Source: Poseidonia sp.
GTDB taxonomy: Archaea; Thermoplasmatota; Poseidoniia; Poseidoniales; Poseidoniaceae
Direction: 5' to 3'
Length of the DNA stretch: 64,000 nucleotides
Assembly: GCA_030827475.1 (NCBI GenBank)
Contig: JAUREJ010000006.1
Location: 4,024-68,023 of the forward strand
How positions within the stretch are numbered: position 1 is the stretch's first letter; every line of letters begins with the position of its first letter. Both the position numbers and the translations under genes were made by a program. The notes beneath the pieces were generated by a model. The model was given only the letters and a program-made list of their open reading frames with translations. It was not told the DNA's origin and searched no databases. Shown here piece after piece: positions 25,482-62,651 of this stretch.

Positions 25482-25501
25482 ACAAGACCAACCGTCTTGT
25501 T
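25481..25501 (+). terminator. Perfect 8-bp hairpin immediately after the stop codon of the 24492..25481 gene
   Basis: AACAAGAC-caacc-GTCTTGTT read directly from the sequence. It overlaps the last base of the TAA stop. No strong T-run follows. Confidence 0.3.
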
Positions 25502-25524
25502 GCTATGGTTACTGTTGTGGCTCA

Positions 25525-25549
25525 AAGGTGAAAGTATTTTCTTCTCCTT
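25525..25549 (-). terminator. Imperfect hairpin 27 nt downstream of the last island gene (possible operon terminator)
   Basis: AAGGTGAA-9 nt-TTCTCCTT (8 bp, one mismatch) lies between the convergent genes ending at 25481 (+) and 25576 (-). Confidence 0.2.
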
Positions 25550-25575
25550 GTGACAAATCTATTCAGTTGCTCTGG

Positions 25576-26319
25576 TTAATCTTTGAGTCCATCGAGAAAA
25601 TCATCGGTTAAATCATCAATGATTTTCTTACCTCGAGGCCACGCCCACCCGATTGCAGCAACCATGCCGAGCAACGGTGCATATCTGTATTGAAGTGCTT
25701 GACAGGCATCAGTTGTCCCTGCAAACATGTCCACTTGACTCAGCAATGCGCCTGCATCTTCTTCACAGGAGATGTTGATTAAAGCAACACCTGCAGATGG
25801 GACAATAGCTGCAATAGTGTAAACCATGATTGCTGTCGAAAGCAGCGTGCACCATGTTATCCGCTCTTTGCCGGGGTCGAGTAATTTCTTTTTGTTCTTC
25901 AATACCAACAACATTGGAACGGATAATGCTGTACAAAAGAGGAAAAATGGCCAGCCAAAAATTTCGGAAAATTGTGCAATCTCATCGGGGTTTGCGATCA
26001 GAATAGCAGAACCTCCCATGGCAATAAACAAGCCGGATGCGACGTTTCCAGTTCGAGCTAAGAAATAACATGAAAGAGGAGCAATGAACAGTTGTCCAGT
26101 AACGAAGACTGCAAGAATCCATTCAAGTCCAGTAGGAAGTCCCCAGTTCTCCATCGCTGACGCATAGGATGTTTGTTCAGTCAATGTATAGGCCATTCCA
26201 GGACAAATAATGGCAAGAGACAGGAGCCATTTTACTGGGTTGTTTCGAATATCACTCATCAACGAATCTTCTTCTGAAAAAGATTCTATGACATCATCTA
26301 AAATATATTCACTGCTCAT
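25576..26319 (-). CDS. Island gene 11: polytopic membrane protein (247 aa), unknown function
   Basis: About six hydrophobic segments. The ATG overlaps the stop of the upstream 976-aa gene by 1 nt (TAATG). AAAGGAGG lies 8 nt upstream of the start. Confidence 0.7.
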   Translation of the reverse strand: MSSEYILDDVIESFSEEDSLMSDIRNNPVKWLLSLAIICPGMAYTLTEQTSYASAMENWGLPTGLEWILAVFVTGQLFIAPLSCYFLARTGNVASGLFIAMGGSAILIANPDEIAQFSEIFGWPFFLFCTALSVPMLLVLKNKKKLLDPGKERITWCTLLSTAIMVYTIAAIVPSAGVALINISCEEDAGALLSQVDMFAGTTDACQALQYRYAPLLGMVAAIGWAWPRGKKIIDDLTDDFLDGLKD

Positions 26320-29249
26320 TACGATGCCTCCTTTTCGTTCTGCTCAGACATGTCTTCTTCAAGGAAGTTTTCAACTTCTTCAATCTCATCAACATCAAAT
26401 TCGACATACTCATCGAATCGAGCATCAGCAGATTTTGTCATTTCACGCTGTCGAATGAGCCCTCGCTTGAAGTAGTGGTCGGCATTCTCGTCTTTCTTTT
26501 TCGTCTTCGGTAGGAATTTAATCAATTCAATTCCATCATCGATGCCGAGATATTTGCCACCTTGTGACAATTTTCTTGCTCCAAATGCGATTAGGCCGCC
26601 ACCAACAAGACCGGTTCCGCCAACGGCTGCGGCAGTTTGAACTTCTTCCTTATCGAGGTCGATGTCTATTATTGACGTTGAATTCTCCTTCACTGGAACT
26701 TCTACTGGTACCTCTACTTCCACCTCGACTTCCACGATAACATCATCGTTGCATCCATCTCTGTCCTCATCGTTTTCTTCAGCAGCAAAAGTGTATGGGC
26801 ACTTGTCGCTATTCGATTGGTTTCTAGTATCAACTGGGATCGTATTGTTCACACCGTCCCCATCAATGTCGAAATCACATGCATCACCCATTGTGTCGTT
26901 GGTATCAGCATCGATATTTGTTTGCAACGGGTTCCAGATGAATACACAATTATCAAGCCTGTTGATGACACCGTCATTGTCTGAGTCGTTTGGATGAACT
27001 TCACATCCATCAATGAGACCATCTTCGTCTTCATCAATCGTGTCATCTGAACCAGGGCACCTGTCCAGACTGTTGATGACACCATCATCATCTAAGTCAT
27101 TATCTTGAACGATGTCATCTAAACATCCATCAAAATTGAGGTCCAACGAAGACGCATTTTCGTATGGACACAGGTCTTCACCAGTGCCATTGAATGGATT
27201 TGAATTGTTAATAAGATCTCCATCGATGTCACCGTCACATGAATCCCCTACGCCATCCTCATCAAAATCGAGTTGATTTGTGTTCGCTATGTACTGACAA
27301 TTATCAAAAACATCCTCTATAGAATCGCCATCTGTGTCATTTTCTGCGTGAATATAGGGGTACGCATCCAGAAGGTCAGGAACGCCATCACCATCGCTAT
27401 CATCGAGACACCCGTCCATGTTGTTATCAGAAAGTGATGCGTTTTCAAACGGACATTGGTCATTTCCTTGTCCGTCGTAGGGTACATTATTTGTTATACC
27501 GTCTCCATCGATATCGGTATCACACTCATCACCTTCGCCATCGCCGTTGTAATCTAGTTGGTTCTCATTCCAATTGTTTGGACAATTATCATTTTGATTT
27601 GCAATACCATCGCCATCAGTATCAGCTGACGCTTGCATGAATGCAAATGGGTCATTCCAGTCAGGAATACCGTCTGCATCAGTATCGTGTTGGAAAGTAA
27701 ACATCGTATACTGTTGACTTGATGCCTCTAGGCCGATGATGCTCGTGTGATATTGATTGTTTGAAATGATGAGTGGTCGTTCTTCAGAGATTTTTGGCAG
27801 CACACCAAGAATGTTCAATGTTGAAGTGTCAACGATACTTATTCTGGGGTCGAGCTCAATAATGCCAACTCGGATGTCATTTTCATCGTACACATCGATG
27901 GTTTCATTGTATGAGTAGTCCCAGTTGAGTACAAGTTGACGTGCAAGGTATTTTCCTTCGATGTATCCATCGGCTTCAAGGGCCCAAGCCAATCCTGTTT
28001 GCCGTGGAACAAATTGAAGTTTTTCTCCAAGTTCATGGTCGAGAATTGTCACGCCAGGGTCTCCGGCTCCTCCTTGGCTGTTGAACGTGAATGTCAATTT
28101 ATTTTCTTCATCAGCATGCACATCAAAGATCGTGTGTGCACGAGTGGGGTTCATGCTAAAATTTTCAGGGGCAGTTGAAACATAACTGTAATTATCTTGC
28201 CTGAAAAACCAACCTGTGGGGTGTTCTGTGGAGCCAGATTTTTCAATTCCCTCGCTCGAATTGAAGAGATAGGTTTGGCTGTTCCCATTCCATGCTTGAA
28301 TGCCGAGGAATACCTCTGTTCCAAAAGGATACACGATGACACCATCTTCGTAACCAAAGTTGTTGCATGGAGAATTAGCTTGGATGTCATTTTGTGGACA
28401 ATTATCTTCATGGTGAAGGATTTCACCAGTTATTGACATCACCATGAAATATGCATCCCCACTATAATCGCCCCGAACAACTTTGGAATTCTCAGTTACT
28501 GCTATTGATGAGAGTTGACCAGCCAAGAATATCTTGCGTTCTGTCCCAACATCACTAAACGCTACACTGTTAAACTTGATGTGTCCATACGTAGGGTCAG
28601 CATCCGATGTCATAATTTCTTTGACCCAAATTTTCGTTCCATTGCTCGCATGCATCATGACGACAAGACCTGCATCAACATCTTGGTATGGGTTGTGAAT
28701 TCGAGATCCGACTCCAAAATCGAAACAACCAGTGAATGAACCTGCGATAACAATTTTACTCTCGTCACTCGATAATGAAATATCCTTCATTTGAATTCTC
28801 GATTCATTTATGTTATTGTAATCGCTTGGAGAACAATAATTCCCACTTTTTGGAGTTGGAGCGAAAATCCAATCCCAATATCCTTCAGCATCCATCTTAG
28901 CAAGGACAAGTGATGAAGTGCCGTCTGCACGGTTGAGCCCGTTGTGGTGGTCAATCCATTCGGACCCAAGAATGAGTTTGTTCTTACTCAACACCCCTAC
29001 CATGTATGTGGAACCCTCACTATCAATGACTGATGATGTGACTTTGAAATCAGTATAGTATGAACCTGGTGTTCCAGTTGGGGTGATGAGTTGCATGACC
29101 TCAGTTGCAGTCTCGTCAAGTTGAGTATATGGTTCGGCGTGTGAATATGCCTGGCCGTTATTCACATCGTCGAGTGAAATATTGACAGACCAAGGCACTG
29201 ACATGAATGAACATAGAATCATCAAAACGAGAATCTTTACATTTTTCAT
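26319..29249 (-). CDS. Island gene 10: secreted 976-aa protein with N-terminal beta-rich region, thrombospondin type-3 repeat array, (EV)n linker, TM anchor and acidic cytoplasmic tail
   Basis: Signal peptide MKNVKILVLMILCSFMSVPWS. There are many DxDxDGxxDxxDxC repeats (DTDADGIPDWND, DTDGDGIANQNDNCP, DTDIDGDGITN, DSDGDGVPD, DTDGDSIEDVFDNCQ, DGDIDGDLIN, DSDNDGVINRLDNCV, DFDIDGDGVNN). The linker is VIVEVEVEVEVPVEVPV and the TM is AAAVGGTGLVGGGLIAFGA. GAGGAGGAA lies upstream of the ATG. Confidence 0.85.
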   Translation of the reverse strand: MKNVKILVLMILCSFMSVPWSVNISLDDVNNGQAYSHAEPYTQLDETATEVMQLITPTGTPGSYYTDFKVTSSVIDSEGSTYMVGVLSKNKLILGSEWIDHHNGLNRADGTSSLVLAKMDAEGYWDWIFAPTPKSGNYCSPSDYNNINESRIQMKDISLSSDESKIVIAGSFTGCFDFGVGSRIHNPYQDVDAGLVVMMHASNGTKIWVKEIMTSDADPTYGHIKFNSVAFSDVGTERKIFLAGQLSSIAVTENSKVVRGDYSGDAYFMVMSITGEILHHEDNCPQNDIQANSPCNNFGYEDGVIVYPFGTEVFLGIQAWNGNSQTYLFNSSEGIEKSGSTEHPTGWFFRQDNYSYVSTAPENFSMNPTRAHTIFDVHADEENKLTFTFNSQGGAGDPGVTILDHELGEKLQFVPRQTGLAWALEADGYIEGKYLARQLVLNWDYSYNETIDVYDENDIRVGIIELDPRISIVDTSTLNILGVLPKISEERPLIISNNQYHTSIIGLEASSQQYTMFTFQHDTDADGIPDWNDPFAFMQASADTDGDGIANQNDNCPNNWNENQLDYNGDGEGDECDTDIDGDGITNNVPYDGQGNDQCPFENASLSDNNMDGCLDDSDGDGVPDLLDAYPYIHAENDTDGDSIEDVFDNCQYIANTNQLDFDEDGVGDSCDGDIDGDLINNSNPFNGTGEDLCPYENASSLDLNFDGCLDDIVQDNDLDDDGVINSLDRCPGSDDTIDEDEDGLIDGCEVHPNDSDNDGVINRLDNCVFIWNPLQTNIDADTNDTMGDACDFDIDGDGVNNTIPVDTRNQSNSDKCPYTFAAEENDEDRDGCNDDVIVEVEVEVEVPVEVPVKENSTSIIDIDLDKEEVQTAAAVGGTGLVGGGLIAFGARKLSQGGKYLGIDDGIELIKFLPKTKKKDENADHYFKRGLIRQREMTKSADARFDEYVEFDVDEIEEVENFLEEDMSEQNEKEAS
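26735..27690 (-). repeat. Coding array of thrombospondin type-3-like Ca-binding repeats inside the 976-aa gene
   Basis: Boundaries located by back-translating HDTDADGIPDW (about 27690) and ENDEDRDGCNDDV (about 26735). Confidence 0.75.
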
Positions 29250-29347
29250 ACATTTTCCTCCTCAATATGTGTTATGTGTCTCACAGCAAATGGTCTAAAC
29301 AGCCTCTTTGTTGTTCTTTTCTTGGTATGTAATTGAGATGTCATCAT
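29246..29347 (-). CDS. Candidate 33-aa basic micro-ORF bridging the 922-aa and 976-aa genes
   Basis: Hand translation gives MMTSQLHTKKRTTKRLFRPFAVRHITHIEEENV. Its ATG directly abuts the TGA of the 922-aa gene (TGAATG). Its TGA overlaps the ATG of the 976-aa gene (ATGA). It is below the 60-aa cutoff of the ORF track. Confidence 0.3.
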   Translation of the reverse strand: MMTSQLHTKKRTTKRLFRPFAVRHITHIEEENV

Positions 29348-32116
29348 TCATTCACCTTGATCGATTTGATTTAATTTCAACCAGCCTTCATATGCAAGCA
29401 TTTTCCCATTCGGCAATCCTGCCAAATCATCACTTGCCTTAACTTCACTCTGCAGAACACTTGATGGTGATTCTCTGTGAAGCCATTTCCACTGCATTTG
29501 TGGCTTACCATCATCAATTGGCATTCGGATTGATGTTGGGTCGACAAGAACTGGTCCAACTTTGAACGTAGGTGCAATCTTTGCCATTGATTCCTCCCAA
29601 TGTTCCCTCAGAAGGATAATCTCTTTTTGCGGCAGGAATCCGCTGGTCAAATGAAGTGCAGATTGTGGATGCAAGAGCAGTGTCAAGAAAATATCAGTTT
29701 CAGGTAGGACATCCAGTGTGTTATCGAATGAAAGGAAATCATGGTCAATCGACTGGTCTGATTCAGGAATCGGTGCACCAGATTCATCGATTGGGAACAC
29801 TGTGTAGAATCTTGTGTAGTCATCATCAATGAAATATCCTAGTAATCCATCGATTTCTCTTTCTATACTTCCCAATTTGACTTGGAAAGCATGCTTACGT
29901 TGTGATTCACTTAACTGCGTCCATCCACCTTCAACTTGAAGACGAAGAAGTGCACGAACAACAGCAACTGGTCGACCCATGTAAAATGAAGGATGATTAA
30001 TGCCTCCTTTACCAAATGGGTCTGAATGCCAATATGTCGTATCAATGGCACGTAATAAAGCTGACAAAACACCCTCCCCAGAGTTTTCGAGATTTCTTTC
30101 CTGTTCGTCGATTCTTCCAACATCCATCAAAGAGTTGATAATCCTGTCAAGGTGCTTATTTCCACAATCTGGAGCGGTTCCTGCAGCAGAAAAGTTTCCT
30201 GGATTATTGTCCCATGCAAGTTGCCCTTTTTGGATACCTCCAAGAGTCCAGTCACGGTCAGCTACACGAAGTTGTCCTCTTGCATTTCCTTCATTATCAA
30301 AGACCTCCATCGCCCATTCGATGTGATCGGGTAGGAGGTAGCCACAAATTGGTGATGCTACTAAATCACTGTTGAGCAGGGCGGCTGTTCCACCCGTAGC
30401 TGGTAGCGTGTCATCGTCGTGAGCAAGCAATCTGAAATCCAGTCTTGACGGTTTGGGAATCCGTGGTCGGATGACAATTTTTCCAGACTCATCGCTGTAG
30501 TTTTGTAAACTTAAACCGACACTTACTTTTGGAGGTTGGCCGCTATCAAAATTGAGAAGGCCTTCCGGTCGAATTTCGCGGAGGTTACCAAAGGCATCCA
30601 CAATTTTCAGTTCAACGATTTCGACGAGACCTGCTCGAATAGGATGCGTCTCAGATAACTGGTTGATTTTATTATCAAGTCCGCTCAGTGTTATGGATAA
30701 GAGGTCACGCTGTTTGAAATCATAGACCAGTTGTTCGAGCATGTCTTCTTCTGTAACATCGAGAACCCCATTTTGATCTTCATCAAGTTCGTTTTCATCT
30801 TTGAGAAATTTGTTGATTTGCGAAACGACCACATTTGGGGCACTTCGGGTGATTGGTAAGCGTTCGGTGATGATGATTGCTTCATCCTCATTGGCTTGAA
30901 TAGTTTCATTTCCACTTGTTCGCTGGTAATCCACACCCTTCAATTCCCAGTTTTCTTTATCAGGATAAAATTTGAATCTGATATCTGCAAAAAGTGGCAG
31001 CCATGCCTGTTTCCACTGTTGATACGCAATTGGTGAAGGTAAACTGCTTCGCAGTCCCCTAACAGAATAACCGCCTAAGTTGAATAATTTCTTGATTGAA
31101 GCGTAGTCTCCTTCGCAGTCCTCCAAGAAACGCATTTCATCGTATAATGCATCAATTTCTAATGGCATCCATAAACGGTTTTGTGTAAATGTCAATGTCC
31201 TATTTGTTTCACCAATGAGCCGATTAATATCTGCAATTGTCCGAATTTTTGTGAGCCCCTCAGGATGATAATATCCCTCCTCCAAAGCTTTTGTCGAACG
31301 CAATTGGTCTGAAAGAAGTAAAACGGGGTCGCGTGGTTCAAAATATCTTGGAGCAGGGTAAGCGGTAACTTTTGGTATTTGTTTCTCTTTAAGCCCAAAT
31401 GCAAGTTGATGATTCTTGGCAAACTGCATTCTGTCTTGATTAAATCCTTGCTGGGCAAAGTTTTGTATCTGCTGACCGAGAGGTGCTTGTTGTTGTGCGT
31501 ATTGGTGTGCTGTTGATACTTCGTTTCCCCGCCGATTTTTCGTTGGTTCGAACCGCTTCTCTTCTTCTTTCACATAATCAAAGAGGATGCCACCATCAAT
31601 GGCGTGAAATGATTCCTTGTGTATTTCATGTTCAAATCGATATTCTCCATCTGCTGTATCGAGTTCACCAAGCAAATCGTGTGTGAAACCAACAAAGAAT
31701 TTCTCGAATTCTTGTCGCTCCTCTTCCGAAACACCTGCATTATTTTCAGCGAGTTCGGATGAAATAAGGGCAGCTAATGCCTCTTCTTGATTAACGCCAA
31801 TGGCTGCATCTAACTCATAAGCATCATTGTTTTCAATAGGATGACCCCACTTGACATTACATACGGCACCGTGGAACAATGTGTGCCTTGGCCAATGTTC
31901 GCCAATGGTGTCAATTGCCGCTCGCACCATGAGGCTGGAATCTATGGCTGTCGCCCCAGCGCCAATATTGATAGCATCGCTCGAATACTTGCTTGACTCC
32001 GACGTTTTGTTTTTTCCAGTCACCTCTTTTTGTTTGCCTTCTTTTCGGGGAAGGATTGATTTCTTTTCGCGTCCAACGTTGTTCTTGTCTGGGGAAATTG
32101 ATGTATCCTTTTTCAC
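29348..32116 (-). CDS. Island gene 9: 922-aa protein, no recognisable domain
   Basis: The GTG start overlaps the upstream stop (GTGA). AAGGTGG lies about 9 nt upstream. The N-terminus is basic and disordered-looking (KKDTSISPDKNNVGREKKSILPRKEGKQKE). No signal peptide. Confidence 0.8.
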   Translation of the reverse strand: MKKDTSISPDKNNVGREKKSILPRKEGKQKEVTGKNKTSESSKYSSDAINIGAGATAIDSSLMVRAAIDTIGEHWPRHTLFHGAVCNVKWGHPIENNDAYELDAAIGVNQEEALAALISSELAENNAGVSEEERQEFEKFFVGFTHDLLGELDTADGEYRFEHEIHKESFHAIDGGILFDYVKEEEKRFEPTKNRRGNEVSTAHQYAQQQAPLGQQIQNFAQQGFNQDRMQFAKNHQLAFGLKEKQIPKVTAYPAPRYFEPRDPVLLLSDQLRSTKALEEGYYHPEGLTKIRTIADINRLIGETNRTLTFTQNRLWMPLEIDALYDEMRFLEDCEGDYASIKKLFNLGGYSVRGLRSSLPSPIAYQQWKQAWLPLFADIRFKFYPDKENWELKGVDYQRTSGNETIQANEDEAIIITERLPITRSAPNVVVSQINKFLKDENELDEDQNGVLDVTEEDMLEQLVYDFKQRDLLSITLSGLDNKINQLSETHPIRAGLVEIVELKIVDAFGNLREIRPEGLLNFDSGQPPKVSVGLSLQNYSDESGKIVIRPRIPKPSRLDFRLLAHDDDTLPATGGTAALLNSDLVASPICGYLLPDHIEWAMEVFDNEGNARGQLRVADRDWTLGGIQKGQLAWDNNPGNFSAAGTAPDCGNKHLDRIINSLMDVGRIDEQERNLENSGEGVLSALLRAIDTTYWHSDPFGKGGINHPSFYMGRPVAVVRALLRLQVEGGWTQLSESQRKHAFQVKLGSIEREIDGLLGYFIDDDYTRFYTVFPIDESGAPIPESDQSIDHDFLSFDNTLDVLPETDIFLTLLLHPQSALHLTSGFLPQKEIILLREHWEESMAKIAPTFKVGPVLVDPTSIRMPIDDGKPQMQWKWLHRESPSSVLQSEVKASDDLAGLPNGKMLAYEGWLKLNQIDQGE

Positions 32117-33492
32117 TTTTCAGCACCACCTTTCTGTTGGTTCATCACGTGTGTAAGAAGCGTTTCCCAATTGGTTGGATCATCGTCAATGTCAGAGCGT
32201 TTGACGTCCCAGCGCAAATCATCTCTCATTTTTGAAAACCATACTTCCTCGGATTCATGTGCTTCCATGTATGCAGGGTCAGAGGACTCATCAGTGAACC
32301 AGCCACATACGAGATAATCAAATGTTGCCGTCGTATCTTGGGATAGTGTGTCATGGAATCCAAACCTACCTTTGGAATTGTCATATGTCGCAGTCCAGTG
32401 CATATCACCCGTCTCGGGTCCGATAGCAGTCATTTCTGGTATCGATGGATCTCGTTTTGTAGGAGTGAAATTATTCAGTGTCGAAACTTCCAATGTGACA
32501 GAATCCACCACCCATGCTTTTACGAGTGGTTCATTTTTTGTTGAGTTTACCACTTTACCGGGAGCAGTTATGTCGTCCACTTTTTTCCTTCGAATTATAA
32601 CCCATAAATCTGGTAGGTATGGAAACTTCAATGTCTCGTTCAGCGGTTTAACATCATCTGTTTCGGTTGTAAACTCCACCCTGTTACGAATAGCATCTTC
32701 AAATGAAATTGGATGTTGAAACTTCTCTTCTGTTGATATAAATTCCGGAGGTACATTGCCATCTGTTTCTTTGTACTCAAATTCATTCATCACATCCTCT
32801 TTTTCGAGTAATTCACCCTCAAGTAATGCTCGAGGGGGTTTCCAAAACAGATGAACGCCCGGCTCTAATCCTCCAGTTGATGGATTGTTTGGGGTGTATG
32901 TGAATGCATCAGGTAACCTCCAATCAGATGTGCCATGGTCTTCTTCGCCTTCCCTTTGAATGAAATGCGTTTTCAATGGTGCTCTCTTGTCATAAAGCAT
33001 GAAAAGTTTGTTTAGGTTTTTATCCTGTTCAATCCTAATGGCCTTGGTGTATGGGACAACAAGGGCTTGCACATCGATTGGAACAAGTAAATGACGCCGC
33101 CTCTCTAAATGTGTTTGAAATGCTGCGTCAATGATTTTATTGTCAAATTTCGCATCATGTTTCATTCCTTTCTCTGGTTGGTCGATGATTTTGCCAGCTT
33201 TTACCTCTTTCACAACCGGCGTTGCGTCTTTACCTGTGACGATTTTCTCTTCTGAAACAACTGTATCTGTCTTCCAAATGCCATCGGCATTCGTCTTCGT
33301 TGATGAGGTTTCTTCGACCTGTTTTGATGTTGAAGTGTTGGATTTAACTTTTGATGCAGTGGATGTGATAGATGCTTTCGTAGGAGTTGACGGAATGTCA
33401 GTTTTGTTTGGTGTATTTGACTGGGAAGCGATGTTTTTGACACTGTCTGCTGCTGTTTTGTTGGCAACAGGGTTTTTCTTTCGCTTAGCCAT
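32113..33492 (-). CDS. Island gene 8: 459-aa protein with Lys/Ser/Thr-rich N-terminal third, otherwise unassigned
   Basis: Start moved to ATG 33492, 1 nt after the upstream TAA and preceded by GGTGGTGA. The N-terminal 100 aa or so are low complexity (KTAADSVKNIASQSNTPNKTDIPSTPTKASITSTASKVKSNTSTSK). Confidence 0.8.
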   Translation of the reverse strand: MAKRKKNPVANKTAADSVKNIASQSNTPNKTDIPSTPTKASITSTASKVKSNTSTSKQVEETSSTKTNADGIWKTDTVVSEEKIVTGKDATPVVKEVKAGKIIDQPEKGMKHDAKFDNKIIDAAFQTHLERRRHLLVPIDVQALVVPYTKAIRIEQDKNLNKLFMLYDKRAPLKTHFIQREGEEDHGTSDWRLPDAFTYTPNNPSTGGLEPGVHLFWKPPRALLEGELLEKEDVMNEFEYKETDGNVPPEFISTEEKFQHPISFEDAIRNRVEFTTETDDVKPLNETLKFPYLPDLWVIIRRKKVDDITAPGKVVNSTKNEPLVKAWVVDSVTLEVSTLNNFTPTKRDPSIPEMTAIGPETGDMHWTATYDNSKGRFGFHDTLSQDTTATFDYLVCGWFTDESSDPAYMEAHESEEVWFSKMRDDLRWDVKRSDIDDDPTNWETLLTHVMNQQKGGAEK

Positions 33493-33493
33493 C

Positions 33494-36606: not shown

Positions 36607-36607
36607 T

Positions 36608-44760: not shown

Positions 44761-44834
44761 GCCACAACCCCCAAACCTGTTATCGTTAGGTGACGTTCTC
44801 TTGAAAGTCTAGGGCTTGTGTACTCATCACTCAT
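44757..44834 (-). CDS. Candidate 25-aa micro-ORF immediately upstream of, and stop/start-overlapping, the 2057-aa gene
   Basis: Hand translation gives MSDEYTSPRLSRERHLTITGLGVVA. GGAGG (44847..44843) lies 8 nt upstream of ATG 44834. Its TGA overlaps the ATG of the 2057-aa gene (ATGA at 44757..44760). Confidence 0.35.
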   Translation of the reverse strand: MSDEYTSPRLSRERHLTITGLGVVA

Positions 44835-44872
44835 TATTCAATCCTCCTATTTTTCAAATACATGGCTAAATT

Positions 44873-48286: not shown

Positions 48287-51200
48287 TTTCCTCACTCCTT
48301 TGCATCTTTTTCATGATCTCGTCACTGAACATCAAATTCCCGAGTTGTTCAACAAATGCTTTGTTTTGAATGACCGTATCATTTGGTCCTGATTGAACAC
48401 CAGGTATCGAATGAGTGGATGGCGGTCCAACTGGGATGGCACCCAACAATCGAAGCAGATGCAAAAACAGATACATGTCATCTCCATTGGGAGCATCACG
48501 GACCGGTTGAGCATCAAGTGGTGAAGAGATTGTAACCACACCTGCAACCCTCTCTTCTACAGTATCTTCGCCTTCGGTATCCGTGAGGTAGGTTCCATTT
48601 TCATCTTGTTGCGTGTAATATTTCGCTGCCAGTCCGCCAATTGAGTGGCCGATGATGAACACCTTGCCTCCATTGGACTGTGAAATGTGCTCCACCATTA
48701 GTTTCACCTGTTGTGCTAACAATAGGTCGTATTTTTCCGAATTTTGAATCGAAAATGATGGTTTCAGTACATTTACTCGCTGCGGCTGAGCCAATTGATT
48801 GGCATGAGAAAGAATCGTTGTTTCGCTGAGTTGTGGCCAAGCGGAGAAATCAAACAATGGAGATGTCGTGACGTTAACATTCAACGTCTGATATAATGCC
48901 GTTGCGATGGTTTGACAATTTGACGGGTCAAGCCAGTATGGAACAATGAGAAGGACACTCAGGTCATCATGAGTATCTTGAAGGAGATTCAAAAATGAGG
49001 TGCATTCTTGAATGACCGATACGTCTTGAATAGTATCAAAATGATGAGAGACGGGCGACAAACTTTGTTGACGATTGGCCCATTCGTTCATTGGCTCGAG
49101 TTGGTTGATTTCATGAATCAATCCATCGGAATTTCGAAGATACAATTCAAGGCCACGTAGCGATTTCCGAATTTGCGCTACCGACATGTGTCCAATCGCA
49201 TGTTTTGCTCTCCGGTCGAATTGCTGGAGGTAGTGAATCATAAACGCAAGTGAGTGTTCCCAGCCAATAGGAAGTTGAGGGTGTTGGTGTGGAGTGAACG
49301 TTGATTGATACATTGAATTGACAATGGCTAGAATTTCTCCATTCAAATGCGAGAGTATTTCTTCAACATGTTGGCGCGGCAATCCATCAGGGTCGAGCCA
49401 AAATAGGAGTTCAAATTTAGGCCAGCCTTTTGGCTGGATCCCCATTGCCCAAGGGTCTTCATACGTTCCAGTTCCATCGACAGTCCACGGTATCTTTGGT
49501 AGCGCAAGACCAAATGGATTATTTGGTCGATGTTGCGTATCACGGTCAAAATCGAGTTCAAATTCAAAATCAAACTCGAAATCAAAATTCAACCATGAAC
49601 GTTCACGCTGAGGTTGTTGTCGATTCTTACCCCAGCCAATATCTGGTAATCTCAGGTCGGGCAGGCTGCCAGAGAACAAGCCAAATATCCAGCGTAATGC
49701 GGGGAAGGCGAAGGGTTCTCCACTCTTGGAAGAGGCCGAGAAAATGTGGCGAAGAAATATTCGTAGACTTTCAAAAGGATTATCAACGAACAGATCAAAA
49801 TCAAGTTCTGGCCAATCGAAGGGGAGAGAAAATGGTCCTAAACCGAATGAGTGTTCTGACATTCCATGGAATATTTTCCATCGTTCTGGCCAATCTGGTA
49901 AGCTAACATTTGGAAGCGTAAAATCGCCTCGGGTGAGGAATTGGCGAAGGTCCATATGAGGGAACGTTGAATCAAGGTTGAAAAATCCCCCAAGAAAAAA
50001 TCCAAGTCTTCCTCCCCGAATGGTTAGGAATTGACCAAGTAATATCTTGATTTGTGGAAGTTTCAAGAAATCACCAAGATTCCAGTTGGAAAACTGACCA
50101 CTCATGCTTGGGAATAATTGTTGGAATAACGACGACAAGTCAAACGACAGTCCATCAAAATCAATCGAACGAATCGTGAGTTGTGGGACGCTAAACAACG
50201 ATGCCAAGGAACCCGATGAGAGGCTAATCGAGGGTAATGATGGAAGGTTAAGATGTGAGCCGAGGTCAAGCGGCCACGGTATGGCGTCGAATGATAACTT
50301 CGGGAGCCATCCGCCATTTCCATCAGGTCGGTGATGCCAGCCTAAGTCGATACCTGAAAAAATGATAAACGAACCGTCGGGAAGCGTAAGTGAAATGCCA
50401 TCCCAAGAAAGACCCCGAAGAAGCGAAAAGTCAAACTCTGGCCCGACAAGTTGCGGTAATTGGATGAAGAATTGCTTCAAATCAGGCATCTGACCAGAGC
50501 ACTGCAAATCATCAATCGTCACATAATAGCCGTATGAAATCGATGGGAAACGGACCCATTCGAATCCAAGCGTGACCTCTTGGAGTGTCAAGGAAACGGA
50601 TGAGTAAGAAATTAAATTCATGGGTGGGTGCTCATTTTCAACCATTTTTCTCTTCATGGATGCTTCAAGATTGGCCCGTGTGGCCCATGATGCATCGGTC
50701 AGTTGTTGAGGTGGCAAGAAACAAGAGAACAGGATGAAGTAGATGCCGACATCCATTTCAAGTCGTCCTCCTATGTTGACATGTTCAAATCCGAAAAATG
50801 GTAGAATTGAAAGTTGGTCAGATTCTTCTTCGAATTCAAACTCAAGATTGAGCGGAACAACCGAATCTATAGGGGTGAATTGAAGTGTATGATGGTGCAG
50901 TGTTCCATCGGTTTCATATGATATTCCAGCGGCAATCTCCTCCCATTCACGAATTGGAAGGATGCTTTCACCTTTGGATAATTGGAAAAAGGAATGCAAG
51001 ATGTCTTGAACGGCCTCGGCGATAAAACTCCAAGCATGTGTGTTCGAAATGGCTGAACCTTCTGTACCCGGAACTGACGATATCCTAAACAGTTCACGAT
51101 GATATCGGCCTATGGATTGGAGTGGTTCAGTGATGTATTGCAGAAGTGTTGGCATGCTCACGAGATTACCGCCCTGATTGGTGCCTCCAACACGCAAATC

Positions 51201-52952
51201 AAGAGCACCACCTTCCCAAACATTCGATTGGAACGTCCCTCCTCGTGGTGAACACAATCCAAGGATTGCACCCAATCGTTGGAGTATTGGGTCGGTACTG
51301 AATGTTTGTGAAATGATACTTCGGAGCTGAATGAGAGCTTCTTCCAACGCTGCTTCAGCAAGTGAATCATTGAGAAGGTCAAATTCTGGAAACGATTGGT
51401 TTCCTAAGTTAAGGTCCACAAGCAAACAATATGGATGAAGCCCTGTGCCTTTGATGAAGTCAAGACCCATCAAAAAGGCACCCACCGAGCATTGACCGTT
51501 TAAACCATCAATGGCTGGCTGAAACAAGTTGGATGCATCAACGTTGAACAAAAACTCCGAGACGATTGGATTGATTGAAAACTCGAGGGAAATCTCAGGA
51601 GCAAAGTCAAATAAATTTGAGCCTTCGGATTTTAATCGAATGAGGTGGAAACGTAGGCCTAAATCTAATTCGACCGAGTTGATAGGTTTGGTAAGTTCGC
51701 AAAACATTCCAAAATTAAAACATGGAATGCCATCGCTTGAAGTATCATTCCAAAGGTCGAGATAAAGGGTAAAATTTGTTGTTGACATCCATTCTATTCG
51801 CCAAGGGTTGTCCCTTGTCATGTCAAGTTGATATCTGTCAAACCCAGAGAAATCTACATTCGTTACCGTACCAATAAAAAATTGTCGAATATGTCCGAGC
51901 CATCGGTACAAGTTTTCGGAATCTGTAACAATCTCAAAGATCCAATCTCGAATTGCATTGAGGGCATATTGTGGGCTACCAAGATTCATCATGATATCAA
52001 GCACCGGCAACGTTGGAAGTTCTAATCCTTCGACACTCGCTTCAAGCAATCCGAGGGCAGGGAAAAGATGTTGACGAAGCAGTTCATTTCCGATGGATGA
52101 AGAAAATGTTTGGAACAGTTGATTCCAATCAGGCATGAAACCTCCTGAGGGGGTAACAAGGTCTATACCCACATCCACTGGGGTGGTGTTCATCGATCCG
52201 CTGAATTCAACAAGCGTGAGGTCAACATCCGAACCAACTGGGGAAATTGCACAAGCGATGTCAATAGACTTACATTTTGCACTTCCTACTTGTTCATTCA
52301 CCAAAAGAAATTCCCCTTCGTGAGGGGAGAACGATGCTTGAATTGAGACAGAGCAAAGTTGCTGTGCATCTAAGGAATCTAAAGCGCCTGCGTCTTCTTT
52401 TTTGAGCATAACCATCGTGGAAATGTCAGTCGCACTGGAAATTGAGCCAAAAAGCGGGAGGCTTATTGCTAAATTGAGGCGAACATTTGTTTGACCGATT
52501 CTGAAGTTAAGAACTCTCAAACCTGCACCTATGACGAGTGACTGACAATGATGCCCATCAGCTAATTTCTCATCAAGTTCTGTTCTGTGCAAGGTGATAC
52601 ACGTTTCGACGACTGTTCCATCCGACCCTATGGGTGTTTCCATAATCTTGTACCAAGTTTCTTCAATCGAATTTAGAGAAAATTCTGCTGTTACGTGGCC
52701 ATCTGTACTTCGATACATTGGAAACGATTGAATGGTTGAATCGAGCATATCGAGAATTGTGAGTATAGCGGATGTTCGCTCATAACTTTTTGCAAAATCC
52801 ATTGCTTTTGAGAAATTCCATCCGTCCAAATCGAGATGCTGCCCTGTAGGGTCAAGGAGACCCAACGCTTCCAGGATTGGCAATATTGGTTCAGCAATAT
52901 CTTCAGCGAAATCAGTTAATCCGATTTGTACCGACGGACTAGACAACAGCAT
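48279..52952 (-). CDS. Island gene 2: 1557-aa giant protein with C-terminal alpha/beta-hydrolase (lipase / PGAP1-like) domain
   Basis: AAAGGAGGTGA lies directly upstream of ATG 52952. The start overlaps the CBS gene by 14 nt. The nucleophile elbow is VFIIGHSIGGLAAKYY, followed by VAGVVTISSPLDAQP. No signal peptide. The N-terminal 1,350 aa or so are unassigned. Confidence 0.85.
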   Translation of the reverse strand: MLLSSPSVQIGLTDFAEDIAEPILPILEALGLLDPTGQHLDLDGWNFSKAMDFAKSYERTSAILTILDMLDSTIQSFPMYRSTDGHVTAEFSLNSIEETWYKIMETPIGSDGTVVETCITLHRTELDEKLADGHHCQSLVIGAGLRVLNFRIGQTNVRLNLAISLPLFGSISSATDISTMVMLKKEDAGALDSLDAQQLCSVSIQASFSPHEGEFLLVNEQVGSAKCKSIDIACAISPVGSDVDLTLVEFSGSMNTTPVDVGIDLVTPSGGFMPDWNQLFQTFSSSIGNELLRQHLFPALGLLEASVEGLELPTLPVLDIMMNLGSPQYALNAIRDWIFEIVTDSENLYRWLGHIRQFFIGTVTNVDFSGFDRYQLDMTRDNPWRIEWMSTTNFTLYLDLWNDTSSDGIPCFNFGMFCELTKPINSVELDLGLRFHLIRLKSEGSNLFDFAPEISLEFSINPIVSEFLFNVDASNLFQPAIDGLNGQCSVGAFLMGLDFIKGTGLHPYCLLVDLNLGNQSFPEFDLLNDSLAEAALEEALIQLRSIISQTFSTDPILQRLGAILGLCSPRGGTFQSNVWEGGALDLRVGGTNQGGNLVSMPTLLQYITEPLQSIGRYHRELFRISSVPGTEGSAISNTHAWSFIAEAVQDILHSFFQLSKGESILPIREWEEIAAGISYETDGTLHHHTLQFTPIDSVVPLNLEFEFEEESDQLSILPFFGFEHVNIGGRLEMDVGIYFILFSCFLPPQQLTDASWATRANLEASMKRKMVENEHPPMNLISYSSVSLTLQEVTLGFEWVRFPSISYGYYVTIDDLQCSGQMPDLKQFFIQLPQLVGPEFDFSLLRGLSWDGISLTLPDGSFIIFSGIDLGWHHRPDGNGGWLPKLSFDAIPWPLDLGSHLNLPSLPSISLSSGSLASLFSVPQLTIRSIDFDGLSFDLSSLFQQLFPSMSGQFSNWNLGDFLKLPQIKILLGQFLTIRGGRLGFFLGGFFNLDSTFPHMDLRQFLTRGDFTLPNVSLPDWPERWKIFHGMSEHSFGLGPFSLPFDWPELDFDLFVDNPFESLRIFLRHIFSASSKSGEPFAFPALRWIFGLFSGSLPDLRLPDIGWGKNRQQPQRERSWLNFDFEFDFEFELDFDRDTQHRPNNPFGLALPKIPWTVDGTGTYEDPWAMGIQPKGWPKFELLFWLDPDGLPRQHVEEILSHLNGEILAIVNSMYQSTFTPHQHPQLPIGWEHSLAFMIHYLQQFDRRAKHAIGHMSVAQIRKSLRGLELYLRNSDGLIHEINQLEPMNEWANRQQSLSPVSHHFDTIQDVSVIQECTSFLNLLQDTHDDLSVLLIVPYWLDPSNCQTIATALYQTLNVNVTTSPLFDFSAWPQLSETTILSHANQLAQPQRVNVLKPSFSIQNSEKYDLLLAQQVKLMVEHISQSNGGKVFIIGHSIGGLAAKYYTQQDENGTYLTDTEGEDTVEERVAGVVTISSPLDAQPVRDAPNGDDMYLFLHLLRLLGAIPVGPPSTHSIPGVQSGPNDTVIQNKAFVEQLGNLMFSDEIMKKMQRSEEND
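48282..48960 (-). other. Alpha/beta-hydrolase domain coding segment (GHSIG nucleophile)
   Basis: The Ser codon TCA is at 48644..48642, from back-translation of FIIGHSIGGLAAKYY. Confidence 0.6.
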
Positions 52953-54291
52953 TCACCTCCTTTTGAGCCGGCGATGTTGGTTTTGTCACAAGGAGCCCAC
53001 GTTGGTTCACTGAAAATTCACCTGCAACTGTTCTACGGGGTGTTGAAGCATCGATCCATTCCAAAACATGTTCCCATGTTTTTTCGATAACAAGTTTACC
53101 CCAGACTTCTTGGATGATCTCGTGCGTCTCTAAATTTCGTTGAACTGCGGCACTCCTATTCGCATTCGATTCGGAATTACCCAAATCAAATTCAATGGTT
53201 ACAGGTTGTTTCCCACTTTGGTCGGTTTCGACAGGGAACTCTATGTAAATGACCTCGCCATCTTGCTTGACGATCAACTCGTTTGTGTGAACGATGATTT
53301 CTGAGCCAAGATGTGTCCATACAACAGGGCTCTCTTGTCCATTGGTGTACCTGCGGATGAGATGAGGTCCGAGTGAAGTAAATGTGCCATCATGCTCAAT
53401 TTCTTCGACGATGTGGCCGCTTAATTCACGGAAGTCGGTGGGGCTTAGAAATCCTACGAACATGTTATTCTGGTCAAGAACAATAACGCCATCTGGTTTC
53501 CTTTCCCGTATGGTGTCCAATGCAATATCAAGAGGAGTGTCTTCCCTTAATCTTAGAAGATTTGTTTTCATGTGTTTTTTTATTTTTTCTTTCCGACCAA
53601 GTTTACCCCCAGCGATGATTCGGAGAACATGTTGCACTGAGAGCACACCTTCAATGCCTTTCTTTGACCCCTGTGCAAGAACAAATTGAACCGATGGACG
53701 TCGCAAGAGCAAAGAGGCTGAATCAAGGGTATCATTCACACTTACAATTCGAAACTCATCTCGTAGGTCCACGGCCTCCCCAATGGTTTCAGGTGCAATA
53801 TTCTCCTTCTGTGTTGAGATGAGCATTTTTGATTTCATTTCTCGAAAGTCAGCAGCACTGATGTATCCTTCGAACGTGTCTTGGTCATTAATCACAAGAA
53901 CGGCATGAGGTTGCCTTTCCTGAATGATTTCAATCGCCTTGTCAAGTGGAGTATTGCTTCGTAATCGAAGAACTTCGGTTTGCATGACCGATGTCACAGG
54001 TGTTGAAACTGGGTCAGCACCTTCGGCGAGGTGGTGAAGCAAGATTTGCATTTTCAAGATACCAACGATTCCCCTCCCTTTTTTTCCTCGAACGAGTACT
54101 GCCGAATATTGCACGGGCGAGAGGGCTTTTGCTGCATCTGCTAGAACTGCGTTATATTCAAGAATCGCATACTCATCCCGGAGGTTCAATTCGCCGATAG
54201 TCGAGACCATGCAATCAACATACTTCCATACCTCGTGGAACTCAAATACTTTATTCAGTTGAATTTTCAAAATCAATTGACAGAGGTTCAT
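52939..54291 (-). CDS. Island gene 1: multi-CBS-domain protein (about four CBS motifs) with an unassigned C-terminal domain of about 150 aa
   Basis: Repeated CBS-like units are present (VTSVMQTEVLRLRSNTPLDKAIEIIQERQPHAVLVINDQDTFEGYISAADF; similar units up- and downstream). Start uncertain: ATG 54291 chosen, ATG 54210 is an alternative. The ORF-track start at 54444 would overlap the divergent gene. Confidence 0.65.
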   Translation of the reverse strand: MNLCQLILKIQLNKVFEFHEVWKYVDCMVSTIGELNLRDEYAILEYNAVLADAAKALSPVQYSAVLVRGKKGRGIVGILKMQILLHHLAEGADPVSTPVTSVMQTEVLRLRSNTPLDKAIEIIQERQPHAVLVINDQDTFEGYISAADFREMKSKMLISTQKENIAPETIGEAVDLRDEFRIVSVNDTLDSASLLLRRPSVQFVLAQGSKKGIEGVLSVQHVLRIIAGGKLGRKEKIKKHMKTNLLRLREDTPLDIALDTIRERKPDGVIVLDQNNMFVGFLSPTDFRELSGHIVEEIEHDGTFTSLGPHLIRRYTNGQESPVVWTHLGSEIIVHTNELIVKQDGEVIYIEFPVETDQSGKQPVTIEFDLGNSESNANRSAAVQRNLETHEIIQEVWGKLVIEKTWEHVLEWIDASTPRRTVAGEFSVNQRGLLVTKPTSPAQKEVNAVV

Positions 54292-54327
54292 GAAAAACAC
54301 TTTATCTAACCTGTCAACTTTCCAACC
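54211..54327. promoter_or_regulatory. AT-rich divergent intergenic region between the two CBS genes; candidate bidirectional promoter
   Basis: TTTATCTAA at 54301..54309 sits about 19-27 nt upstream of ATG 54328, which has no SD. This is consistent with an archaeal TATA box and a leaderless mRNA. AATAAAGTATTT lies on the other strand, upstream of the 54210 candidate start. Confidence 0.3.
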
Positions 54328-54750
54328 ATGGCAAAGAATGAACCAATGCTGAAGGATTTGCGACATGCTGATTCCTATGCAATCGTTGAGCCTGATGTTC
54401 CCATGCCTGAAATTGCGAAATTGTTTGCAAAGGACCCGAACCAAGCCGTCCTCGTTTTGAATCCAAAAAAGAACAAATTTGTCGGCGTTATGTACCTCTA
54501 CGATTTGTTGACGCTGTATGGTTCACCGCCCAGACATGTTGAGTCGATACACAAAGCGACGATTGGTCAATGTGCAAATACAAGAGTCATTTCAATCCAA
54601 TGGGATGAAAACATCTCACAAGCTTGGGCGAAAATCAACAAATACAAACCAAAAGCAGTCCTTCTTCACGATGAGAGCAAAGAATTTGTCGGATACATCT
54701 CGAATGAGGATCTATGGGAAGCCCTTGAGGAGATTGGCATCGGCGAGTAA
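54328..54750 (+). CDS. Stand-alone CBS-pair protein (140 aa), divergent from the operon
   Basis: Two CBS-like units are present (LKDLRHADSYAIVEPDVPMPEIAKLF...AVLVLNPKKNKFVGVMYLYDLL and IGQCANTRVISIQWDENISQAWAKINKYKPKAVLLHDESKEFVGYISNEDLW). The composition is AT-rich like the island. Confidence 0.75.
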   Translation: MAKNEPMLKDLRHADSYAIVEPDVPMPEIAKLFAKDPNQAVLVLNPKKNKFVGVMYLYDLLTLYGSPPRHVESIHKATIGQCANTRVISIQWDENISQAWAKINKYKPKAVLLHDESKEFVGYISNEDLWEALEEIGIGE

Positions 54751-54894
54751 AGTGGATTGAACGTTCCTTACAGATATTCGGGTTGTTTGGGATAATCTAT
54801 ACAGTTTATTCTGGTGAAATGCCATGGGATTGGTTATGAACAAGTTGGTCTATAAAATCACAATTTGGACTACGAACGAATCAATTCGGATGCG

Positions 54895-54924
54895 TTGGAA
54901 GGGGCTATCCGAAACCCCATCCAA
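54895..54924 (-). terminator. Hairpin downstream of ribH at the right island border
   Basis: TTGGAAGGGG-ctatccgaaa-CCCCATCCAA (10-bp stem, one mismatch), about 78 nt downstream of the ribH-like stop on the minus strand. Confidence 0.25.
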
Positions 54925-55001
54925 CAGCAAGAAGTTGTTGGAAGGGCTTTGCGTGGGTCTGTTTGTTCGCTACCCATGAAGATACCACGCAGTGCGTGGC
55001 T

Positions 55002-55394: not shown

Positions 55395-55406
55395 GCCTCG
55401 CCCACC

Positions 55407-56009: not shown

Positions 56010-56011
56010 CT

Positions 56012-57213: not shown

Positions 57214-57354
57214 GAAACCCCCTAAAGCCTCACCTTCATGAAGAGTCGTATCTGTTCGTTCTTGAAATCAAGCCCACAGCGCCGAGAAAGCGGACAGCCA
57301 ACAGAAAGGGATTATCATGTGGTGCCCCTTGGGTAGGTTTCGGGGGGGAGACGA

Positions 57355-62460: not shown

Positions 62461-62578
62461 GAAAACACCTCCGACACCTTGCGGTTTAGGCCACCCGAAA
62501 ATCCTGACTCGTATAATGTTTAGGGCGCCCGAAACACTTTCAGGAACTGGGAGCAAAAGGGTATGGTTTGAGCGGAAG

Positions 62579-62651
62579 TAGTCCCTCCCGGATTCGAACC
62601 GAGGTCGGAGGAACCAGAATCCTCCATGATGGACCGCTACACTAAGGGACT
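62579..62651 (-). tRNA. tRNA-Gln (anticodon CUG)
   Basis: Hand-folded cloverleaf: acceptor AGTCCCT/AGGGACT (A1:U72), D-arm GTGT...TCAT with GG in the loop, anticodon stem GAGGA/TCCTC with loop TTCTGGT, T-arm CTCGG-TTCGAAT-CCGGG, discriminator A. No encoded CCA. Confidence 0.85.

Follow-up and report, generated by a model that had tools for sequence, protein, structure and literature searches.

Two kinds of described machine come closest to the locus reported here, a low-G+C (guanine plus cytosine) island of giant genes in the archaeon Poseidonia sp. (order Poseidoniales). Extracellular contractile injection systems (eCIS) and type VI secretion systems (T6SS) likewise involve large proteins without signal peptides encoded in one operon, and occur mainly in environmental bacteria and in some archaea. 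Lipases and NlpC/P60 amidases are among the hydrolytic domain kinds that serve as T6SS effectors, and the hydrolytic accessory domains of the present locus are of these kinds. The Tc (ABC) toxins share with it three very large, co-transcribed proteins without signal peptides, and variable enzymatic parts carried on a conserved frame. The window, that is, the whole 64,000-nucleotide (nt) stretch analysed (GenBank assembly GCA_030827475.1, contig JAUREJ010000006.1, positions 4,024 to 68,023 of the forward strand), contains the island between G+C change points at ~25.5 and ~55.0 kb. Its operon is very probably the archaeal form of a conserved module of three genes, A, B and C, built around a DUF6603 protein and acquired from bacteria, and the core of this module lies outside known kinds of system by every test made here. 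A preliminary description, drawn from the sequence without database searches, had put the island forward as the main candidate for an undescribed system; that call is supported, and the reach of the module proves far wider than one archaeal island.

The A-B-C module, its distribution and its origin

The 2057-amino-acid (aa) protein of the island passes the Pfam gathering threshold for DUF6603 with 408 bits against a cutoff of 27. The island giants had been described as orphans, a label that fails for this protein and for four others belonging to DUF6603-linked families. The relationship is most directly seen in L001, a JGI metagenome contig, in which a 1,582-aa DUF6603 protein is followed by a 717-aa and then a 1,261-aa protein. 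The 717-aa protein aligns with the 580-aa (7.9e-23) and 476-aa (3.8e-14) window proteins, and the 1,261-aa protein with the 464-aa (6.6e-06) and 922-aa (1.5e-20) window proteins; across the five window proteins, blastp E-values range from 4e-65 to 6.6e-06. The bacterial module thus defined comprises A (DUF6603), B (the 580- and 476-aa proteins fused) and C (the 464- and 922-aa proteins fused). In Poseidoniales, seven genes take the place of these three: A is divided among the genes for the 1557-, 2057- and 660-aa proteins, and two genes each correspond to B and to C.

A scan with a DUF6603 alignment, keeping one genome per GTDB species, yielded 80 loci from Poseidoniales, Gemmatimonadota, Acidimicrobiia, Micromonospora, Mycobacterium, Hahella, Chitinophaga and other Bacteroidota, as well as Myxococcota, Acidobacteriota, Verrucomicrobiota, Nitrospira, Alpha-, Beta- and Gammaproteobacteria and Clostridia. 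Iterative hidden Markov model (HMM) searches with the window proteins against all open reading frames (ORFs) of these loci (jackhmmer) recovered all five core families in 71 of the 80; in the remaining nine, the contig stops at most 5.5 kb from the DUF6603 gene. Of the 71 loci, 68 keep the order A-B-C on one strand, and the window has the B and C families 3' of A, on the same strand and in the same order, past the 660-aa gene. Hence the suggestion in the preliminary description, that stretches of these proteins resemble co-occurring bacterial hypothetical-protein families, is borne out, with gene order conserved as well. The family of the 580-aa protein, counted separately, was found in 83 of 88 loci (jackhmmer). 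The same three genes, all annotated as 'hypothetical protein', are present in Leptospira broomii, Paenibacillus kobensis, Scytonema, a P. polymyxa plasmid and a Streptomyces linear plasmid, and overall the module occurs in at least 12 bacterial phyla. A profile of the B family, searched against 1.84 billion representative proteins, retrieves 5,615 representative clusters (50% identity) at E<=1e-3 and 3,609 at E<=1e-30. In addition, the 476-aa protein as query retrieved 110 clusters, almost all of them from marine metagenomes and Euryarchaeota/Poseidoniales metagenome-assembled genomes, on contigs of up to 679 kb; divergent Poseidoniales contigs keep the order DUF6603-660-580-476-464-922-TSP3(-247).

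Protein A occurs in two architectures. The compact type measures ~900–1,700 aa, and the giant type, at 3,160–3,670 aa, joins regions homologous to the 1557- and 2057-aa proteins in a single polypeptide. A 660-aa-like region, to which the N-terminal part of the 660-aa window protein corresponds, forms the C-terminal end of giant A in Gemmatimonadota, Acidimicrobiia, Micromonospora and Nannocystaceae (jackhmmer). On plasmids, DUF6603 is found only in large replicons of ~0.25–5.7 Mb. Two haloarchaeal megaplasmids, from Salinigranum marinum (L093) and Halobellus sp. (L100), carry a divergent DUF6603 locus; in the proteins encoded 3' of the DUF6603 gene there, the match to B is marginal and a match to C is absent.

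The window therefore shares with bacterial DUF6603 proteins and their two neighbours a full-length DUF6603 match, homologous neighbouring genes, and their order and strand. Compared with the bacterial A-B-C genes, the Poseidoniales operon adds CBS proteins, a cassette with peptidoglycan (PG)-binding and NlpC/P60 domains, a lipase-like domain, a TSP3 surface protein and a membrane protein. On the strength of sequence comparison, the island is not an orphan; it represents a very large conserved module in an archaeal version with split genes and added parts.

A neighbour-joining, midpoint-rooted DUF6603 tree, calculated without support values, places the Poseidoniales as one clade inside the giant-type bacterial clade (Micromonospora, Acidimicrobiia, Gemmatimonadota and Nannocystaceae). 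The bacteria of this clade have the 660-aa-like tail, and the C-terminal domain of the first operon protein has a small-gene homologue in most of them, Micromonospora excepted; this homologue is a separate gene of ~160–220 aa, situated 5' of the giant gene, in Gemmatimonadota, Acidimicrobiia and Nannocystaceae (family alignment). The nesting of the archaeal DUF6603 copies within a bacterial clade points to transfer from bacteria. In bacteria, the G+C content of the module is close to that of its flanks; here the island averages 43% against 57% for the host, a 14-point difference, and Poseidoniales modules span 36–49%. Many bacterial phyla have the genes fused, and a single archaeal order has them split; given this distribution and the G+C contrast, bacteria-to-archaea transfer followed by gene fission is the simplest history. 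The window copy probably derives from a lower-G+C relative. Paralogy among the island giants, for example between the 1557-aa protein and the N-terminus of the 2057-aa protein, was considered and none was found.

The core proteins compared with known systems

Among the core proteins, Pfam names only DUF6603. The 922-, 464-, 476- and 580-aa proteins have no match in Pfam, NCBIfam, PHROGs or PADLOC, and 27 bacterial C fusions have none in Pfam. PDB sequence profiles likewise give no match for A (DUF6603), B, C or the C-terminal domain of the first operon protein. AlphaFold2 models computed from family alignments are confident for a B fusion (P0108, 717 aa; mean predicted local distance difference test score, pLDDT, 88.5; predicted template-modelling score, pTM, 0.83) and for a C fusion (P0115 of Chitinophaga agrisoli, 1,186 aa; pLDDT 90.4, pTM 0.86). 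Foldseek places neither model against the PDB at E<=1e-3, the best values being 0.06–0.08 with query-normalised TM-scores of at most ~0.1, and at the same threshold the C model has no match in the viral BFVD. The only structural resemblance, of a coiled-coil hairpin to the AcrA/EmrA hairpins, was judged non-specific. The open-access literature searched makes no mention of DUF6603 (PF20248) and holds nothing relevant on horizontal gene transfer (HGT) of peptidoglycan functions in Poseidoniales, giant-gene islands in Marine Group II or orphan Hcp in Gemmatimonadetes.

Scans of the window proteins with Pfam, NCBIfam, PHROGs and PADLOC detected no Walker-A ATPase, integrase, capsid, terminase, sheath or tube, in agreement with the preliminary description. 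Specifically, a contractile sheath or inner tube (Phage_sheath_1; Phage_T4_gp19 or Hcp) is absent from the window proteins by Pfam, NCBIfam and PHROGs, and a baseplate core (gp25/GPW, Baseplate_J) or spike (VgrG/Phage_GPD, PAAR) is absent from the window by Pfam and PHROGs; the island has no AAA+ or ClpV-type ATPase domain. The module differs from eCIS and T6SS in that sheath, tube, gp25, baseplate-J, PAAR and AAA+ ATPase are missing from the window and from most related loci, and in that B and C have no detectable sequence or fold kinship to solved baseplate or spike components. It differs from Tc toxins in lacking VRP1, TcA/TcB-binding, SpvB and RHS/YD-repeat domains in the window and any Tc fold match in the PDB; moreover, its variable part lies on the N-terminal side of A or in separate cassettes, and not in a C-terminal hypervariable region. 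Pfam found no RHS/YD repeats, SpvB, TcdB mid, VRP1 or neuraminidase-like domains in the window proteins or in the 27 bacterial C fusions. Component models of PADLOC-DB give zero matches for the ten largest window proteins. With Pfam, NCBIfam, PHROGs, PADLOC, PDB profiles and Foldseek, no placement of the core in a characterised system was found, and the module cannot be recognised as a phage tail, an eCIS, a T6SS, a Tc/Rhs toxin, an S-layer, a pilus or a defence system already catalogued.

The genes accompanying the module vary by lineage, and several of them have counterparts in contractile machines. A true Hcp (Pfam 8.7e-18; PDB 5urw, 5.6e-36) lies between the small gene and giant A in all four Gemmatimonadota loci, and in no other relative. 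In L005, a VgrG/gp5 oligonucleotide/oligosaccharide-binding (OB) fold domain (aa ~48–105) is fused to the N-terminus of the homologue of the 464-aa protein (11311-12861), with matches to Phage_base_V in Pfam (2e-06, 28.5 bits against a cutoff of 23.8) and to VgrG structures (1.6e-07); this fusion occurs in no other locus examined. A DUF4157 (eCIS_core) protein is encoded directly 5' of A in L001, and the DUF4157 domain marks eCIS toxins (PMC8213781). Fibre-like tail-collar/Gp10_C proteins are present in 21 loci. In L022, a gene for a MoxR-like AAA+ ATPase (PDB 2r44, 4e-72) stands just 5' of this region. On P. polymyxa plasmid p-YT9A (L092, 433-7200), ~8 kb 5' of A-B-C, a cluster of genes encodes two proteins annotated as 'phage baseplate assembly protein V', a DUF4280 (PAAR-like) protein, a pentapeptide protein, a GH-E nuclease and an ankyrin protein; the cluster looks like a spike, toxin and immunity set. 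The C-terminal domain of the first operon protein was tried as a divergent Hcp and rejected (hhalign probability 0.1%).

The lineage-specific Hcp, VgrG OB fold, DUF4157 and Collar/Gp10_C links, the baseplate-V/DUF4280 cluster of the P. polymyxa plasmid, and the likeness of the NlpC/P60 region described below to lytic domains of phage tail proteins could together be explained if the island were a decayed prophage, or a phage-tail-like contractile injection system akin to, but divergent from, eCIS or T6SS. This explanation is very improbable. Sheath, tube, gp25, baseplate-J, PAAR, tape-measure, terminase, capsid and integrase genes are all missing from the window, and, the lineage-specific items excepted, none of them occurs among the flanking ORFs examined within 10 kb in the bacterial loci. 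The confident B and C models are unmatched in a PDB that holds many baseplate structures, and C is unmatched in BFVD. Furthermore, the DUF6603 domain has no tblastn match among 50,697 phage genomes (GenBank) and none in IMG/VR. The weak Phage_base_V signal, followed up as a possible trace of phage-tail or contractile origin, is real, but belongs to the N-terminal extension of one lineage and is absent from the 27 bacterial C fusions.

Accessory domains and possible functions

The core gives no functional clue, so the functional evidence is taken from the accessories. The peripheral domains named in the preliminary description (CBS, GHSxG hydrolase, NlpC/P60-like, PG-binding, Ig-like and TSP3) are all found by Pfam, the hydrolase below its cutoff. 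The 1137-aa cassette protein, encoded between two parts of the split A and present in only some Poseidoniales copies, combines PG_binding_1 (4.4e-06) with a partial NlpC/P60 match (1.5e-09; Pfam model positions 2–62 of 105) and has no signal peptide. Its NlpC/P60 region (~47330–47530) resembles lytic domains of phage tail proteins in PHROGs. The Cys motif TDCSGF aligns with the catalytic Cys of B. subtilis LytE (2.7e-08), and Gln occupies the catalytic-His position (GRVVQVD), where the nearest strains, L010 and L018, have His (GKVVHVD); we take the catalytic residues to be those generally known for LytE/Spr. In a second divergent Poseidoniales lineage (L017), PG_binding_1 occupies the same slot.

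The 1557-aa protein contains a hydrolase-like domain with a GHSIGG motif (~aa 1380–1500, nt ~48453–48815), found only in Poseidoniales. It resembles the alpha/beta hydrolases PGAP1 (1.3e-04) and LCAT (3.3e-03), both under the Pfam cutoff, and has no match among PDB sequences. While the window keeps GHSIGG (~48650–48700), L010 and L018 have IGVGLGG in place of this nucleophile motif. Catalytic-residue loss is reciprocal between them, the window being without the NlpC/P60 His and L010/L018 without the hydrolase nucleophile motif.

Divergence from L010 and L018 is uneven along the operon. The core proteins are 72–85% identical and the DUF6603 domain 96–97%, against 52% for the lipase-bearing 1557-aa protein (C-terminal half) and only 28% for the cassette protein (2593-6105 in each). 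Judged by these identities, the 1137-aa cassette is fast-evolving or swapped. Uneven divergence of this kind is the pattern expected of effector or specificity parts on a conserved machine.

In related loci, a Lipase_3 gene (2.4e-31) lies 5' of A in 10 bacterial loci, and Kelch and PQQ-like propellers occur in 24 loci; in the Chitinophaga locus L040, one collar and one propeller protein bear signal peptides. In haloarchaea, the DUF6603 locus is followed by giant surface proteins (a 2,322-aa protein with a BGTF surface domain, a 2,619-aa hypothetical protein and lamin-tail-domain proteins). Giant-type loci of Hahella and Chitinophaga (L029:53-2061, with equivalents in L030, L031, L033, L034 and L036) have two to three small upstream proteins of ~200–250 aa; two of these match nothing in Pfam and are highly glycine-rich, with GxxG runs reminiscent of collagen.

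Collectively, the accessory parts suggest, short of proof, an envelope-attacking delivery complex, and envelope-directed effector delivery or attack is the role that we tentatively favour for the module. The archaeal order Poseidoniales is not known to make murein, and for that reason a wall-binding domain points to a bacterial target. Such a domain, with or without NlpC/P60, in the cassettes of two divergent Poseidoniales lineages supports the delivery reading. The lipase-like GHSxG domain here and Lipase_3 5' of A in bacteria are consistent with it, as are the DUF4157, Hcp, VgrG OB-fold, collar/Gp10_C and Kelch accessories and the surface proteins that follow the module in both archaeal orders. 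Of the two hypotheses in the preliminary description, the envelope-attacking effector or delivery complex accordingly fits the accessory-gene evidence better than the CBS-gated scaffold.

In the best-supported reading, A-B-C is a cytoplasmically made complex that deploys lineage-specific hydrolytic and binding parts at the envelope, with CBS proteins as metabolic gates. We infer that A, B and C, which bear no signal peptides, would assemble in the cytoplasm into a large complex. The cytoplasmic tail of the TSP3 protein, together with the 247-aa membrane protein, could then provide its docking site at the membrane, and the complex, once exported, would expose or deliver hydrolytic and wall-binding accessory domains to the envelope of a neighbouring bacterium as its presumed target. 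The CBS proteins may tie assembly or firing to the adenine-nucleotide state of the cell, and the outcome would be contact-dependent antagonism or, for a heterotrophic archaeon, lysis of prey. A stronger version is possible but rather doubtful: that A-B-C represents an unrecognised class of sheath-less, ATPase-less effector-delivery or cell-puncturing machine, with folds that have no solved relative, distributed over at least 12 bacterial phyla and Poseidoniales, and serving the archaeon as an anti-bacterial weapon, aimed at cell walls and itself obtained from bacteria.

Several points weigh against a delivery or attack role. The core has no recognisable fold, enzyme, ATPase, pore-former or secretion signal, so that a machine role follows only from lineage-variable accessories, and each link to contractile injection (Hcp, VgrG OB fold, DUF4157) comes from a single lineage. 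The minimal bacterial modules of Scytonema, Leptospira and Streptomyces have no obvious effector. The NlpC/P60 His is replaced by Gln here and the hydrolase Ser is lost in the nearest strains; these domains may be decaying or purely structural. Finally, the CBS domains and the lack of signal peptides would be just as compatible with a function confined to the cell interior.

The inconsistent retention of catalytic residues would also be expected if the module were a surface scaffold or adhesion apparatus that holds or arranges large calcium-binding surface proteins, by which the cell would attach to particles, prey or kin, with the PG-binding, Kelch, Ig and collar domains acting as ligand binders and the hydrolase-like domains being degenerate. 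Many accessories do bind (Kelch, PQQ-like propeller, Collar, He_PIG), the TSP3 surface protein and the membrane protein are kept in Poseidoniales copies, and BGTF-surface and lamin-tail proteins follow the module in haloarchaea. We nevertheless consider such a scaffold unlikely: no signal peptides or membrane anchors are predicted in the core proteins, the minimal bacterial modules have no adjoining surface protein, and associations with Lipase_3, Hcp, DUF4157 and the VgrG OB fold are unexpected for an adhesin scaffold.

The predicted cytoplasmic location of all core proteins suits, in turn, an intracellular anti-virus or abortive-infection system in which the giants sense infection, the CBS domains read nucleotides and the lipase and peptidase domains destroy the cell's own envelope. 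The CBS sensors themselves, a patchy, HGT-prone distribution that includes megaplasmids, and a variable cassette beside a conserved core agree with this idea, and one NCBIfam model of a CBS anti-phage protein is weakly matched (5e-07, far under its cutoff). Yet PADLOC returns nothing, nuclease, helicase, ATPase, TIR, SIR2 and cyclase domains are all absent from the window proteins and scanned neighbours, a murein-less archaeon offers a peptidoglycan-binding domain nothing of its own to bind, and the collar and propeller accessories with signal peptides point outward, as do the surface proteins. A defence function is therefore improbable, somewhat more so than a scaffold. The probability that remains beyond the readings weighed here falls to something else.

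The archaeal operon, its setting and its implications

Eleven minus-strand genes fill the island, with the sizes and coordinates given in the preliminary description, which overlooked a twelfth, a divergent plus-strand CBS gene (Table 1); its 140-aa product is a candidate regulator. The junctions and Shine-Dalgarno motifs described there were confirmed by reading of the sequence. Genes overlap by 14 nt at 52939-52952 and by 8 nt at 48279-48286, ATGA junctions lie at 38587-38590 and 34921-34924, a GTGA junction at 32113-32116 and a TAATG junction at 26319, and 1-nt spacers precede the ATG starts at 36606 and 33492. The only real gaps in the operon measure 112 and 98 nt, the other junctions being overlaps of 14, 8, 4, 4, 4 or 1 nt or 1-nt spacers. 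GGAGG, GGTGG, GAGG or a G-run is positioned 4–10 nt 5' of each internal start; the first gene has no Shine-Dalgarno motif. The start of this first gene is uncertain, as the 450-aa start leaves 36 nt to the divergent CBS gene and a start at 54210 (423 aa) is possible; within its 501-aa ORF, the C-terminal domain spans ~aa 355–501. A promoter and terminator scan of the divergent region was uninformative, since the consensus of the tool is bacterial and the host is an archaeon.

Table 1. Features of the island and its boundaries (window coordinates), and Hcp genes of related loci (locus coordinates).
Feature	Coordinates	Strand	Basis
140-aa CBS-domain protein, divergent from operon, inside low-G+C island	54328..54750	+	Pfam CBS 9.5e-07; G+C 0.44
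First operon gene, 450 aa: CBS pairs and C-terminal domain	52939..54291	-	Pfam CBS 3e-20
1557-aa protein; N-terminal and central region similar to N-terminal part of bacterial giant A	48279..52952	-	jackhmmer to 3,160-3,670-aa giants
1137-aa variable cassette protein: NlpC/P60-like, PG_binding_1, ~650 aa of unrecognised sequence	44873..48286	-	Pfam, PHROGs, LytE alignment
2057-aa core protein A; DUF6603 at aa 1271-1750 (nt 39511-40950)	38587..44760	-	Pfam PF20248 E=6.7e-122
660-aa protein with He_PIG Ig domain	36608..38590	-	Pfam 5.6e-08; jackhmmer
561-aa (580-aa ORF) core B-N, N-terminal half of ~720-aa bacterial B fusion	34921..36606	-	blastp, jackhmmer
476-aa core B-C, C-terminal half of bacterial B fusion	33494..34924	-	blastp, jackhmmer
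459-aa (464-aa ORF) core C-N, N-terminal part of ~1,200-1,350-aa bacterial C fusion	32113..33492	-	blastp, jackhmmer
922-aa core C-C, C-terminal part of bacterial C fusion	29348..32116	-	blastp to L001 1.5e-20; jackhmmer
976-aa surface protein: signal peptide, TSP3 calcium-binding repeats	26319..29249	-	Pfam TSP_3 2.4e-28; hydrophobicity
247-aa membrane protein, polytopic (4-5 hydrophobic segments), encoded by final operon gene	25576..26319	-	hydrophobicity
Left island boundary, intergenic: saccharopine-dehydrogenase-like host gene / 247-aa gene	25482..25575		G+C, gene annotation, other assemblies
Right island boundary, intergenic: plus-strand CBS gene / host lumazine synthase gene	54751..55001		G+C, annotation, repeat search
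Hcp genes of Gemmatimonadota	L021:2021-2515, L022:2126-2620, L023:2123-2617, L024:1132-1620		

Core B-C carries the conserved motif GVPFxYxVPxExMLPxxSxRFFxxDxNW. A homologue of the 976-aa protein lies 3' of C-C in every Poseidoniales locus that extends that far; this protein likely has a C-terminal membrane anchor followed by a cytoplasmic tail of ~95 aa. The 247-aa protein is 77% identical to its counterpart in L003 (17927-18670), whose core proteins are only 41–50% identical to those of the window, which makes it the most conserved protein of the operon in that comparison.

The computed profile (1-kb windows) shows G+C of 0.40–0.45 over 26–55 kb, against 0.52–0.60 at 1–26 kb and again from 55 kb, so the step reported near 25.5 and 54.9 kb is genuine. 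Both flanks are ordinary archaeal housekeeping genes: a saccharopine dehydrogenase-like gene on the left, and on the right genes for lumazine synthase, riboflavin synthase, cytidylyltransferase, DHBP synthase, an AP-endonuclease-fold protein and G3P dehydrogenase. The 14-point difference and the sharp edges would be expected of an assembly or binning artefact in which foreign low-G+C DNA was joined to a high-G+C contig. However, the left junction, formed by the 247-aa gene and the saccharopine-dehydrogenase-like gene, recurs in five independent metagenome assemblies from different samples, and one of them, L094, has the same G+C step there; the island is therefore not an assembly chimera. The same contig also has high-G+C host genes to the left and right of the island, and the riboflavin/AP-endonuclease gene cluster is likewise the neighbour of a distant Poseidoniales copy; together, these points leave an artefact with next to no probability.

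That distant copy (L007, 18328-21074) abuts the AP-endonuclease/DHBP-synthase/cytidylyltransferase cluster corresponding to window 55002–58500, through a different junction, and the riboflavin/AP-endonuclease-fold neighbourhood may be a recurrent site of insertion or recombination. No direct repeats common to the left and right boundaries were found, and searches of the flanks for repeats and of Pfam, NCBIfam and PHROGs revealed no att-like repeats, integrase, capsid or terminase for the island. Rfam finds no non-coding RNAs within it. The sole RNA gene of the window, tRNA-Gln(CTG) (62578-62651, minus strand), is 7.6 kb from the island edge and shows no sign of being an integration site.

In the surface ocean, few archaea are more abundant than the Poseidoniales (Marine Group II), which remain uncultured. 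The module is carried in addition by well-studied culturable genera and groups, including Streptomyces, Micromonospora, Paenibacillus, Chitinophaga, Flavobacterium, Leptospira, Hahella, Sorangium and cyanobacteria, and within the literature searched no member of it has a name, a solved relative or a paper. Two of the three core proteins, B and C, combine confident predictions with no match to a solved structure, and so open a broad field of protein structure and cell biology that is still unexplored. Because bacterial carriers can be cultured, the module is open to experiment now. If the delivery or attack role is correct, it would provide a concrete and testable mechanism for direct antagonism or predation between archaea and bacteria.

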